A stretch of 64,000 bases of DNA from Chitinophagaceae bacterium (GTDB lineage: Bacteria > Bacteroidota > Bacteroidia > Chitinophagales > Chitinophagaceae). The position numbers and the translations under genes are program-made. Positions 4,772 through 6,121 of the stretch are shown here, one piece after another. The notes under the pieces are model-generated. The model worked only from the letters and a program-made list of their open reading frames with translations, ran no database searches and was not told the DNA's origin. The stretch covers positions 62,113-126,112 of the forward strand of contig JBGAJG010000002.1 in the NCBI GenBank assembly GCA_044225015.1, read 5' to 3'. Position 1 is the first letter of the stretch. Each line of letters opens with the position of its first letter.

Positions 4772-6121
4772 ATGAAAAAACTATTCCTGATTTTACTGAT
4801 GGCCATTTCGGTCGTCGGATATTCACAGACATGGACGGCCAAACCAGGTGTTTCGGTCGCCAGCTATTCCAATGGATTTTATGAATACCTGCCCGCAGGT
4901 TATGACGGTGTAAAGAAATTCCCGCTGATCGTGTTTATGCATGGTGTGGGCGAAACAGGAAACGGCACCACCGCCCTGGCGAATATTACGGCAACGGGTT
5001 TGCCAATGCTTTGCGCAAATGGCGAATTCAAACGGTCGTTTATTGTGATTTGCCCGCAAACAACGGGTTGGTCATCGGGCGATCAAATCAACCAGGCTAT
5101 TGACTATGCGGTGAAGAATTACGCCGTGGACCAATCCAGGATATACGTCACCGGGTTGTCCATGGGTGGTGGTGCGGTATGGGATTTTGCACAGAAAAAA
5201 GGCAATAGGGCGGCGGCCATTTTACCGATCTGCGGCGCCTTGGGCGCCAATGCCGCCGGCATCGATTCCCTGGTGAAATTTGGGCTGCCTATATGGGCGC
5301 ACCACGCAAAAGACGACCCGACGGTTTCGGTTGCCAATACCAACGGATGGGTTGACGGAGTAAATGCCAAGGGCATCAAACCGGTGGCCATCAAAACGAT
5401 TTATCCCACGCCTGAATTCCAGATTTCAGGGCATGGCATATGGAATCCGATATACAGGAATCCGGCGATTTACGATTGGTTTCTGACATACCAAAGGGGT
5501 GTTGCGCCGATTGACACGCCGGTTGTTGTGCCGCCGGTCGCATTTACGCCCATCCGGGTGGCGGCGGGATCCCTGGCCGGTTGGACGTCGGATCGCCCAT
5601 ATTTGACCATGTTGTCGGGTTCGGCGGGAAACAAAGCGATTGGAATTTGGGGATTCAACCCGGCGATTGCGGGAACAACCACGCCGGAACTATATCAAAC
5701 CGAAAATTTCGGTGTGATGGAATACCGGTTTAAGGTTCCGCCGGGGGATTACACCGTCAACCTATACATGGCGGAACTATATTGGAATGATGCGGCCAAA
5801 CGGTTGTTCCATGTGGACGCGGAGGGTATCAGGGTCATCACGTCGTTGGATGTGTGGTCGGCGGCTGGCGGGCGATTTAAGGCCCTGCAGCGGTCGTTTA
5901 ATGTCACGGTGACCGATGGAACGTTGAACGTGAATTTCGTCAAGGGTGCAGCCGACAACCCGAAGGTTTCGGGCATTGAGGTGGTGCAGCGCGGGACAAT
6001 TGTCATCCCGCCCGCGCCCTGGGTGGTGACGGTGGAGTATAGGGATAGCGCGACCAACGCCCTGATCAGGGCGAAAACAGACACATTTGCGGCGCCGGTG
6101 ACGGTGGTCGTCAAGCAATAA
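4772..6121 (+). CDS. Secreted alpha/beta-hydrolase esterase fused to a malectin-like carbohydrate-binding domain
   Basis: Start moved to ATG 4772, giving signal peptide MKKLFLILLMAISVVGYSQ. Nucleophile elbow GLSMGG (Ser codon 5159-5161), then HAKDDP and SGHG motifs. The C-terminal part (YRFKVPPGDYTVNLYMAELYWN...KVSGIEVV) looks malectin-like. Confidence 0.7.
   Translation: MKKLFLILLMAISVVGYSQTWTAKPGVSVASYSNGFYEYLPAGYDGVKKFPLIVFMHGVGETGNGTTALANITATGLPMLCANGEFKRSFIVICPQTTGWSSGDQINQAIDYAVKNYAVDQSRIYVTGLSMGGGAVWDFAQKKGNRAAAILPICGALGANAAGIDSLVKFGLPIWAHHAKDDPTVSVANTNGWVDGVNAKGIKPVAIKTIYPTPEFQISGHGIWNPIYRNPAIYDWFLTYQRGVAPIDTPVVVPPVAFTPIRVAAGSLAGWTSDRPYLTMLSGSAGNKAIGIWGFNPAIAGTTTPELYQTENFGVMEYRFKVPPGDYTVNLYMAELYWNDAAKRLFHVDAEGIRVITSLDVWSAAGGRFKALQRSFNVTVTDGTLNVNFVKGAADNPKVSGIEVVQRGTIVIPPAPWVVTVEYRDSATNALIRAKTDTFAAPVTVVVKQ

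Follow-up and report, generated by a model that had tools for sequence, protein, structure and literature searches.

An esterase–malectin gene behind the endolysin of a Chitinophagaceae prophage, with leaderless relatives behind unrelated phage endolysins

Introduction

Accounts of how phages lyse diderm bacteria usually name a holin, an endolysin and a spanin. To our knowledge, esterases are known as partners in lysis only in phages of mycolate bacteria, where the enzyme in question is LysB, which cuts the bond between arabinogalactan and the mycolate outer membrane. In E. coli prophages, esterases such as NanS-p are known as late-region cargo, and there are also phage tail spikes or fibres with SGNH esterase domains, particle-bound, which deacetylate O-antigen or capsule. 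As for the Chitinophagaceae, we know of almost no phages of this family that have been studied.

Two of the closest described systems are LysB, a mycolylarabinogalactan esterase that mycobacteriophages encode beside the endolysin (PMC7246905, PMC7022511), and NanS-p, a sialate O-acetylesterase of lambdoid/Stx prophages that is co-induced with the late genes (PMC10462455). The NanS-p examples considered here, those of 933W and of phi24B (vb_24B_21), join an SGNH/SASA domain (PF03629) to an N-terminal DUF1737, have no Sec signal and are encoded upstream of the holin in E. coli prophages.

The gene described here varies these known phage esterase themes. It is the last gene of the late lysis block of a Chitinophagaceae prophage, and its product is probably a serine carbohydrate esterase, a prediction made from sequence and a structural model, with a malectin domain behind the catalytic domain and a putative signal peptide in front of it. 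Our main new result is that three further contigs of uncultured phages have a leaderless homologue of the esterase domain directly behind a GH24 or a GH19 endolysin. To judge from its sequence, the esterase–malectin is a homologue of neither LysB nor NanS-p.

Results

The gene closes the lysis block of an integrated prophage

The window (the whole 64,000-nucleotide stretch analysed, from contig JBGAJG010000002.1 of the Chitinophagaceae bacterium assembly GCA_044225015.1) carries the esterase–malectin gene inside a 50.9-kb prophage, prophage 1, that is bounded by a 46-bp att repeat (Table 1). In a same-genus genome (G074) the tRNA-Gln site is empty, the flanks are joined and the 50.9-kb element is absent; because of this empty site and of the att repeat, a host gene at this locus is ruled out. 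The prophage setting assumed in an earlier note on this DNA is thereby confirmed, and the objection it had raised against itself, that relatives free of the prophage might have the gene at this locus as one of their own, fails in G074.

Table 1. Features of the esterase–malectin gene and its surroundings, in window coordinates.
Feature	Position	Strand	Evidence or remark
Holin-like small membrane protein	3362..3601	+	phrog_20 holin E 1.6e-4; phrog_1350 holin E 7.3e-3
217-aa membrane-anchored coiled-coil protein	3619..4272	+	putatively spanin-like
Endolysin, zinc peptidase M15	4371..4748	+	Peptidase_M15_3 E 1.3e-16; phrog_894 endolysin E 2.8e-34
Esterase–malectin gene	4772..6121	+	intact ORF, 449 aa plus stop
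Putative Sec/SPI signal peptide, residues 1-19	4772..4828	+	cleavage predicted before Gln19 or Thr20
Alpha/beta-hydrolase serine esterase domain, residues 20-243	4829..5500	+	Pfam, phmmer, Foldseek, triad
Pro/Val-rich interdomain linker, residues 244-259	5501..5548	+	low pLDDT, variable alignment columns
Malectin / CBM57-like beta-sandwich domain, residues ~260-406	5549..5989	+	PF11721, phmmer, Foldseek
Conserved C-terminal tail, residues 407-449	5990..6118	+	motif E-x-RDSATN...PV-V, two predicted beta-strands
Terminator-like hairpin plus T tract	6181..6212	+	closes co-directional late block
Bacteroidota-type promoter consensus TTTG-N21-TAnnTTTG	6242..6274	+	consensus match only; starts next unit
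Prophage tyrosine integrase	8062..9249	-	39% identical to integrase of prophage 2, contig C1
attR, 46-bp exact repeat	9331..9376	.	overlaps tRNA-Gln; attL = C3:20616-20661, outside window
tRNA-Gln(TTG), integration target	9333..9404	-	ARAGORN

The genes ahead of it in the block encode a holin-like protein, a coiled-coil protein and an M15 endolysin. For the coiled-coil protein no family match was found, and weak homologues of it occupy the same position in the phage contigs L092/L094, L093 and L193. The esterase–malectin gene, which the earlier note had placed 24 nt downstream of the endolysin, is indeed adjacent to it, at a distance of 23 nt from endolysin stop to esterase ATG, and the operon terminator that had been announced behind it was found as well: a stem of 10 pairs, 6 of them G-C (6181-6204), runs into the T-rich tail TTTCTTTT, and the fold around the hairpin has a z-score of -3.45. 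A search of the + strand for TAnnTTTG over positions 1-9400 of the window revealed no promoter consensus upstream of the esterase, the sole such box being the one listed in Table 1, on its 3' side. Being the last gene of a late block and having no promoter consensus of its own, the esterase–malectin is most likely co-expressed with the holins and the M15 endolysin, and it is on this ground that we infer its time of expression.

A serine esterase domain followed by a malectin domain

Profile and structure searches recovered both the esterase family and malectin/CBM57, and the serine-hydrolase core and C-terminal malectin-like module that had been read from the bare sequence are both present. 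The esterase domain has the canonical Ser-Asp-His order and a G-x-S-x-G elbow, with the nucleophile Ser130 (codon 5159-5161) in GLSMGG (residues 128-133), Asp182 (5315-5317) in HAKDDP (178-183) and His221 (5432-5434) in SGHG (219-222). These three residues are invariant in alignments of 12 and of 31 sequences, and the triad is kept in all phage copies too. In Pfam, the domain scores 33.8 bits for Abhydrolase_2 (cut-off 23) and 26.8 bits for DLH (cut-off 21). The AlphaFold2 model of the protein (mean pLDDT 89.8) and Foldseek show an alpha/beta-hydrolase fold in the N-terminal domain, which is closest to PDB 4q82 (phmmer E 5.9e-27; Foldseek E 1.4e-17, TM 0.81, 32-34% identity) and is also matched by 3doh (phmmer E 1.7e-18, and again in Foldseek) and, in Foldseek, by 3wyd, the feruloyl esterases 1gkl and 5vol and the PHB depolymerase 8daj. 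Overall, this domain has its greatest similarity to feruloyl/acetyl esterases of the CE1 type, to PHB depolymerases and to Abhydrolase_2. An extracellular short-chain PHA depolymerase was considered and rejected: the NCBIfam cut-offs are missed by a wide margin (NF050058, 49.8 bits against 150; TIGR01840, 30.4 bits against 107.85), and the N-terminal half alone matches.

Downstream of a linker in which pLDDT is 62-64, falling below 50 at residues 250-253, and in which the alignment columns are variable, residues 298-402 match Malectin PF11721 with E 1.7e-22 and 80.6 bits (cut-off 23). The fold of this domain matches that of human malectin 9ikp (Foldseek E 1.1e-10, TMt 0.63), the malectin-like domain of the B. 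uniformis GUS 5uj6 and plant CrRLK1L ectodomains, and its sequence matches Xenopus and human malectin (2k46; phmmer 2e-08). The motifs LYQTE(N/R)(F/Y), AE(L/V)Y and DNPKV align with malectin. The C-terminal tail, with strands predicted by AlphaFold2 at 417-424 and 431-439, is common to phage-type and host-type full-length relatives.

Could such a gene be a mere passenger or a decaying one, or could it encode a non-catalytic or virion-bound structural protein or adhesin for which esterase chemistry is irrelevant? The exact gene has been found in one genome only, its protein cluster having a single member, which is what a passenger might look like. However, its 449 codons are intact, conservation is complete in the triad, in the oxyanion HG motif and in the malectin motifs, the AlphaFold2 model is confident, a cleavable signal peptide would be unexpected in a virion protein, and parts of the gene recur in short contigs of identical sequence from three other studies, all of which makes this reading very improbable. 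These identical fragments (167-321 nt, from four other runs) include the endolysin–esterase junction, and the same comparison gave many matches to tRNA-Gln; the fragments indicate that the same sequence is present elsewhere and are silent on function.

A putative signal peptide and a probable periplasmic stay

The N-terminus was read as a Sec signal peptide from features of the sequence rather than with a dedicated predictor. The leader runs MKK, LFLILLMAISVVG, YS up to the presumed cleavage point, with Q next; it has a 13-residue hydrophobic core and no Cys, and in the AlphaFold2 model this region is a helix of lower pLDDT. A Gln at +1 would fit the Q-rule of Bacteroidetes (PMC5837995). The signal peptide is kept in full-length relatives and absent from the leaderless phage homologues. 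Its n-region, hydrophobic core, agreement with the Q-rule and conservation in full-length relatives all speak for the Sec signal already proposed in the earlier note.

Two other routes were considered and dismissed. For secretion by T9SS there is no sorting domain (no match to PF18962 or TIGR04183 at E<=1 in Pfam and NCBIfam), the tail comprising only ~40 aa and two strands; for a lipoprotein, the leader would need the Cys that it does not have. Since neither signal was found, the protein is expected to stay in the periplasm until lysis, and a surface polymer would therefore be reached only late.

Relatives of the esterase domain behind three endolysin types

The esterase family is found directly 3' of three unrelated types of endolysin: M15 in prophage 1, GH24 in L092/L094, where a leaderless esterase starts 5 nt after the lysozyme, and GH19 in L093 and L193, where the start of a leaderless esterase overlaps the endolysin stop. 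The leaderless homologues have Ser, Asp and His intact. Other copies are found in other company. Two esterase copies in prophage 2 of the same genome adjoin LtfC-like and collagen-like fibre genes, and this prophage has BNR sialidase-like and signal-peptide-bearing pectate-lyase-like genes just 5' of its holins; contig L096 has a full esterase–malectin directly 3' of a collagen-like fibre gene; and in prophage 1 and L093 the esterase domain forms part of a larger protein of 606-750 aa, which in L093 carries a Gly_rich_2 domain; the 606-aa form is encoded at C3:50533-52353.

This phage sample is small: both prophages come from a single genome, and they are joined by about five contigs of IMG/VR, among which there are close relatives. 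A single-protein scan of IMG/VR returned no relative, and alignment-based scans returned only 4, then 6 loci. In 50,697 deposited phage genomes tblastn found only one weak partial match, and among PHROGs no family matches the esterase–malectin at E<=0.01.

Given homologues directly after GH24 and GH19 endolysins, the link to lysis appears stronger than prophage 1 alone would suggest. One way to account for it would be that the enzyme helps lysis itself, either by O-deacetylating peptidoglycan for glycosidase endolysins or by cleaving esters of LPS, lipids or the outer membrane to help break that membrane, the latter being LysB-like in function though not in descent. Its place immediately behind M15, GH24 and GH19 endolysins (23 nt, 5 nt and overlapping stop/start, respectively) suits this explanation, as does the route of the leaderless forms, which, like endolysins, would get to the wall only by way of holin lesions. 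So do the best Pfam and PDB labels, which read 'phospholipase/carboxylesterase', and there is a precedent in LysB, an esterase beside an endolysin (PMC7246905).

Several observations nevertheless make a direct lysis helper unlikely. M15 peptidases are not blocked by O-acetylation, yet it is the phage with the M15 enzyme that has the most elaborate esterase. A spanin-like membrane/coiled-coil protein is already in every such cassette, the malectin module and the CBMs of cellular relatives suggest that the target is a soluble or surface glycan, the esterases in prophage 2, L092 and L096 adjoin fibre-like genes as closely as lysis genes, and no homology to LysB families was found in Pfam or PHROGs.

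A mostly cellular family, with a copy on the host chromosome

About 155 of the 159 other loci with the esterase domain look cellular. The C-terminal modules of these cellular relatives are CBM6/35, PKD and T9SS sorting domains, many proteins carrying PF18962, a set typical of secreted polysaccharide-active enzymes. The catalytic domain is 40-52% identical to that of cellular secreted enzymes, the upper value being that of a 1184-aa host protein. The nearest relatives are full-length esterase–malectins (P0002-P0011, P0124 and others), known here from their protein sequences. In the domain tree, the phage gene groups with signal-peptide esterase–malectins, apart from both the leaderless phage esterases and the host copy; this tree, which comes from a quick search, is rooted arbitrarily on the 606/750-aa copies and has several long branches, was used for nearest neighbours only.

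The host copy in question is a chromosomal esterase–malectin (C1:63992-65338) that is 38-40% identical to the phage protein over its full length and has the same four-part architecture, signal peptide and C-terminal RDSATN tail included. It is syntenic with its counterpart in a prophage-free Chitinophagaceae MAG (L012, JBASZQ010000014), next to tRNA-Leu/tRNA-Gly, and only 75 bp separate it from the att of prophage 2, on the outer side. Capture from this neighbouring host copy by imprecise excision was considered as a source of the phage gene and set aside: with an identity of 38-40% and separate clades, no recent capture event is supported.

These relatives bear on another explanation, that the gene is cargo of the NanS-p type or serves lysogenic conversion, a captured host-type periplasmic esterase that would feed the lysogen or its kin, by taking ester groups off polysaccharides that are imported or found in the environment, or alter the lysogen's surface, with no role in the phage cycle. 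A mostly cellular family, full-length esterase–malectins as nearest relatives and a high G+C (0.540, in the top 3.6% of prophage windows) would together fit a recently captured cargo gene. There is, moreover, the same architecture in a conserved and, in L012, syntenic host chromosomal gene, a catalytic domain whose best matches are secreted enzymes of cells (up to 52% identity), clustering with signal-peptide esterase–malectins and not with leaderless phage esterases, and a location towards the att/integrase end, a part of prophages in which cargo genes collect. NanS-p itself is a late-region esterase with a lectin-like module that serves nutrition (PMC10462455). What renders cargo rather doubtful is that the gene follows closely on the endolysin in a terminator-bounded late block with no promoter consensus of its own, and that this esterase family holds the same slot in phages with different endolysins, which argues for a phage function and for replacement in place over random cargo.

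Discussion

How does the esterase–malectin compare with the systems described? It resembles LysB in being an alpha/beta-hydrolase serine esterase encoded beside the endolysin in a lysis cassette, and the leaderless phage homologues share the LysB layout. Unlike LysB, which has neither, it carries a putative signal peptide and a malectin module, presumably glycan-binding. No PHROG, lysin B families included, was matched at E<=0.01, no cutinase or PE-PPE domain was matched at E<=1 in Pfam, and no LysB structure is among the PDB sequence matches at E<=0.1. We know of neither mycolic acids nor mycolyl-arabinogalactan in Bacteroidota. The earlier suggestion of a LysB-like protein is therefore apt for the position beside the endolysin and inapt for sequence and substrate.

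NanS-p is the closer published analogue. Both are prophage carbohydrate esterases with a C-terminal lectin-like beta-sandwich, encoded in the late region by the lysis genes. Unlike NanS-p, the present protein is an alpha/beta hydrolase with malectin and signal peptide, encoded after the endolysin in a Chitinophagaceae prophage, and it has no SASA or DUF1737 match in Pfam at E<=1. With cellular secreted esterases and with 4q82, T. maritima EstA (3doh) and LC-Est1C (3wyd) it shares the domain family and the Ser-Asp-His triad, although most of the cellular enzymes have other C-terminal modules and a T9SS sorting domain, which serves export over the outer membrane, and have no phage genes nearby. 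Deacetylating tail spikes are similar in concept, as phage esterases that edit acylated surface glycans, but the 449-aa protein differs from them by a non-SGNH fold, a putative cleavable signal peptide and the absence of fibre or spike domains.

The reading that we favour, and hold tentatively, is that of an esterase coupled to lysis, which would take acyl groups off a glycan of the host envelope or one outside the cell. The substrate and the benefit to the phage, as we infer them, would be the following: (i) the malectin module would dock the enzyme on such a polysaccharide, for instance capsule, EPS or an LPS sugar chain, (ii) the esterase would then cut off its acyl groups, which are probably acetyl, at about the time of lysis and (iii) the glycan layer, once loosened or altered, would let progeny escape without being trapped by debris or by cells that are already infected. 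Its role would thus be one of receptor destruction or dispersal, alongside the other glycan-active enzymes of these phages. The adjacency to the endolysin fits a direct lysis-helper role equally well.

A bolder proposal goes beyond de-acylation of a glycan around lysis. In tailed phages of Chitinophagaceae, lysis cassettes might as a rule have an esterase of this family as their fourth component, beside holins, spanin-like protein and endolysin, with the task of breaching or stripping an acylated envelope layer of diderm hosts; it would then be an independent Gram-negative counterpart of LysB, and the esterase–malectin an exported, glycan-targeted upgrade that has replaced the leaderless form in the same slot. 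We consider this improbable as things stand.

In conclusion, an esterase family unrelated to LysB and NanS-p sits behind three endolysin types in soil and sludge Chitinophagaceae phages, and it also occurs in a presumably exported, lectin-tagged form. Should the gene be cargo after all, it would show clearly how a phage can acquire a carbohydrate esterase from its host. If, on the other hand, the substrate is in the host envelope, the esterase–malectin would be a sign of an acylated glycan layer, so far undescribed, with which these phages must cope, and would offer a ready-made enzyme and binding module for probing it.

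A predicted exported esterase with a glycan-binding module

Prophage 1, on contig C3 of the source genome (G000), carries at the end of its lysis block the gene of a predicted exported protein that combines an intact serine-esterase site with a glycan-binding module; the ORF, domains, triad and position behind the endolysin all bear out what the earlier note had observed. The ORF (window 4772-6121, +) is intact and has 449 codons. GTG 4736 is an alternative start that would add 12 residues ahead of the canonical leader, but ATG 4772 is the start, because all full-length relatives begin at the MKK/MRK position in the alignment. 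The first residues look like a Sec/SPI signal peptide, a reading supported by the conservation of this leader in relatives of the protein and its absence in leaderless phage homologues, and the predicted new N-terminus is a Gln, which corresponds to the Bacteroidetes Q-rule (PMC5837995). Since the leader has no Cys, a lipoprotein reading was rejected, and no T9SS sorting domain was detected.

By score, motifs and fold, the protein belongs to the Abhydrolase_2/DLH-type esterases and to the malectin/CBM57 family. phmmer matches in the PDB include 4q82 (E 5.9e-27), EstA of T. maritima (3doh, 1.7e-18) and LC-Est1C (6e-15), while Ser130 (GLSMGG), Asp182 (HAKDDP) and His221 (SGHG) are invariant in alignments of 12 and 31 sequences, and the motifs LYQTE, AE-Y and DNPKV are common to its malectin domain and animal malectin. 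In an AlphaFold2 model computed from 31 sequences (mean pLDDT 89.8), the N-terminal domain retrieves with Foldseek 4q82 (TM 0.81), then the esterases 3doh and 3wyd, CE1-type feruloyl esterases and a PHB depolymerase, and the C-terminal domain retrieves human malectin and the malectin-like domains of a Bacteroides glucuronidase and of plant receptor kinases; a viral structure library yielded distant alpha/beta hydrolases only. A PHA depolymerase identity was discarded, the protein scoring below the cut-offs of those models, and its C-terminal tail matched no known family.

Features of the esterase-malectin, its surroundings and the second prophage of the genome (nucleotide positions in the window unless a contig is named)
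Feature	Position	Remarks
Endolysin	4371-4748	Peptidase_M15_3
Predicted signal peptide	residues 1-19	MKKLFLILLMAISVVGYSQ; basic n-region, 13-residue hydrophobic core; resembles Sec/SPI
Alpha/beta-hydrolase esterase domain	residues 20-243	Pfam Abhydrolase_2 and DLH above cut-offs
Interdomain linker		Pro/Val-rich; between esterase and malectin domains
Malectin domain	residues ~260-406	PF11721, E 1.7e-22
C-terminal tail	residues 407-449	conserved, E-x-RDSATN..., two predicted strands
Terminator-like hairpin and T tail	6181-6212	3' of the esterase-malectin gene
Prophage 2	G000:C1:21441-63917 (loci L189, L011)	42.5 kb; tRNA-Leu(TAA), 56-bp att repeat

A prophage gene at the end of the late block

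The window corresponds to G000:C3:62113-126112. A 46-bp exact repeat overlapping tRNA-Gln (C3:20616-20661 and C3:71443-71488, the latter being window 9331-9376) bounds a 50.9-kb element with head-morphogenesis, tape-measure and tail genes and an integrase. In G074, a genome of the same genus, the left flank continues directly into tRNA-Gln and there is no prophage. A host gene present at this locus in prophage-free relatives, which the earlier note had named among the findings that would overturn its reading, is excluded by this repeat and the empty site. Between the tRNA-Gln and the conserved right flank, G074 has ~4.1 kb of unrelated DNA (L188, G074:C1:58000-77999, reverse-complement 10181-14329), possibly left over from a different element that had occupied this att site. 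Contigs of 167-321 nt identical to prophage 1 (window 3800-6503 and 8404-8724), one of which covers the endolysin-esterase junction (4729-4996), turned up in sequencing runs that carry the labels activated sludge, fish gut and 'organism A' and belong to three other studies, so that the same phage or host seems to occur elsewhere at low abundance.

The gene is preceded by two tail-fibre-like genes, genes for small membrane proteins (one of which weakly matches holin PHROGs) and for a 217-aa membrane-anchored coiled-coil protein, and the endolysin gene, whose stop lies 23 nt from the esterase ATG; the adjacency described earlier stands, the distance of 24 nt does not, and the terminator was found where it had been placed. 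The sole TAnnTTTG (Bacteroidota-type promoter box) on this strand of the first 9.4 kb, at 6242-6274, comes after this terminator, so that by consensus criteria the gene would have no promoter of its own and would close the late block, co-transcription being unproven. The spanin-like coiled-coil proteins (window 3619-4272; L092:7724-8263; L193:4233-4772; L189:8239-8949, minus), which have low overall identity, share a Cys that immediately follows their N-terminal hydrophobic helix (WRSC, VRGC, IRGC and GHGC) and may mark an atypical lipobox or take part in a conserved disulfide; the C-terminal end of the window's protein is also hydrophobic.

Adjoining the endolysin as it does, the gene could encode a direct lysis helper whose targets would be the O-acetyl groups of peptidoglycan or esters of the outer membrane, but this is unlikely for an enzyme that is paired with an M15 peptidase, bears a malectin module and already has a spanin-like gene in its cassette. 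To our knowledge, the substrate of LysB, the mycobacteriophage esterase, is absent in Bacteroidota, and no sequence relationship to LysB was found, which led us to reject that identity. From the earlier interpretation, the prophage gene in a lysis slot is thus retained, while the LysB likeness is positional only (PMC7246905, PMC7022511).

The same slot in other phages

This slot is filled by homologous esterases in other phages. In the IMG/VR contigs L092 and L094, tail genes are followed by genes for a spanin-like protein, membrane proteins, a GH24 lysozyme (Phage_lysozyme, E 1.7e-34) and a leaderless 243-aa esterase, which begins 5 nt past the lysozyme and has 38% identity to the window's esterase domain. 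L093 and L193 have the same type of cassette but with a GH19-type endolysin, and here the esterase, leaderless and 246 aa long, has a start that overlaps the endolysin stop. The L193 enzyme (6001-6741; IMG/VR 3300032291_003067) has GPSMGG, not GLSMGG, at the nucleophile elbow and is otherwise 84% identical to that of L092. Prophage 2, on contig C1, presents a CHAP endolysin, an IS1595 insertion (transposase gene), three small genes and two tandem leaderless esterases, past which lie an LtfC-like gene and a collagen-like fibre gene; just before its holins are a BNR sialidase-like gene and a pectate-lyase-like gene, the product of the latter having a Q-rule signal peptide.

The esterase domain also occurs within a 606-750-aa protein in prophage 1 and L093. 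The 606-aa ORF of prophage 1 (L009:8420-10240 = G000:C3:50533-52353), 9.8 kb upstream of the window start and 1.8 kb upstream of the tape-measure gene, has Gly/Asp-rich repeats flanking an esterase-like domain (36% identity; Ser, Asp, His and HG motifs kept), its 750-aa homologue in L093 has an N-terminal Gly_rich_2 domain, and the protein may be a virion-borne esterase. In the metagenome contig L096, a full esterase-malectin lies directly 3' of a collagen-like gene homologous to one in prophage 2. Its sister, the soil contig L097, has tandem esterase-malectins (652-1938 and 1942-3753), the first of 428 aa and the second longer and running off the contig end; at L096:1475-4117, a 447-aa collagen-repeat protein precedes the first copy.

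All of these phage and L096 copies retain Ser, Asp and His as well as the HG oxyanion motif. Depending on the phage, the same esterase family thus follows an M15, a GH24 or a GH19 endolysin; the sample is small, and L093 and L193 are close relatives. Among 50,697 deposited phage genomes, tblastn found no homologue beyond a single weak partial match, and no PHROG family matches the esterase-malectin.

Cellular relatives and origin

In a quickly built domain tree, the esterase-malectin clusters (SH-aLRT 95) with signal-peptide-bearing esterase-malectins of metagenomic origin, apart from the leaderless phage esterases and the host copy on C1. Its G+C is 0.540 (0.576 in the malectin-plus-tail half) versus 0.485 for the prophage and 0.477 for the genome; it ranks in the highest 3.6% of windows across the prophage and the highest 1% across the genome. 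The C1 paralogue (448 aa, C1:63992-65338, L011:9993-11339, minus), with 38-40% full-length identity, leader and C-terminal tail included, lies 75 bp outside the att repeat of prophage 2. L012, a Chitinophagaceae MAG contig collinear with both host flanks, has an orthologue (10001-11353) beside intact tRNA-Leu/tRNA-Gly and no prophage; given this clean empty-site comparison, the esterase-malectin is a conserved cellular gene type.

The esterase domain is present at 159 genome and metagenome loci. Of these, only L096 and L097 have a phage-like neighbour, and none encodes an endolysin homologous to those discussed above. Cellular relatives typically join it to CBM6/35, PKD and T9SS sorting domains. 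The full architecture is rare (about a dozen 50%-identity clusters), and no match covering the malectin half at E<=1e-40 was found in 150 other genomes of the family. We infer that the gene's position in the lysis block was once filled by a leaderless esterase, which a cellular-type secreted esterase-malectin has since displaced.

These cellular affinities, the G+C and the proximity to att would also suit a cargo or lysogenic-conversion gene in the manner of NanS-p, the sialate O-acetylesterase of lambdoid prophages, but such a role is rather unlikely for a gene with no promoter consensus of its own in a slot that recurs in other phages. NanS-p, too, is an esterase with an attached lectin-like module, and its gene neighbours the lysis genes in the late region (PMC10462455). 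Identity with NanS-p was rejected, neither a SASA nor a DUF1737 domain being present, and the esterase-malectin is a variant of known phage esterase themes.

Possible function and significance

We tentatively propose that the esterase-malectin (i) would be produced late, (ii) would be held in the periplasm until lysis, since neither a T9SS nor a lipoprotein signal is present, and (iii) would then strip acyl groups from a polysaccharide, either extracellular or of the host envelope, and so could help release or prevent re-adsorption. A glycan substrate is favoured by the glycan-active and fibre-like neighbour genes in related phages and by the CBM-rich cellular relatives. That the protein is a passenger without function is very improbable. 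The chief interest of these findings is an esterase that recurs behind three types of endolysin in an almost unstudied group of phages.
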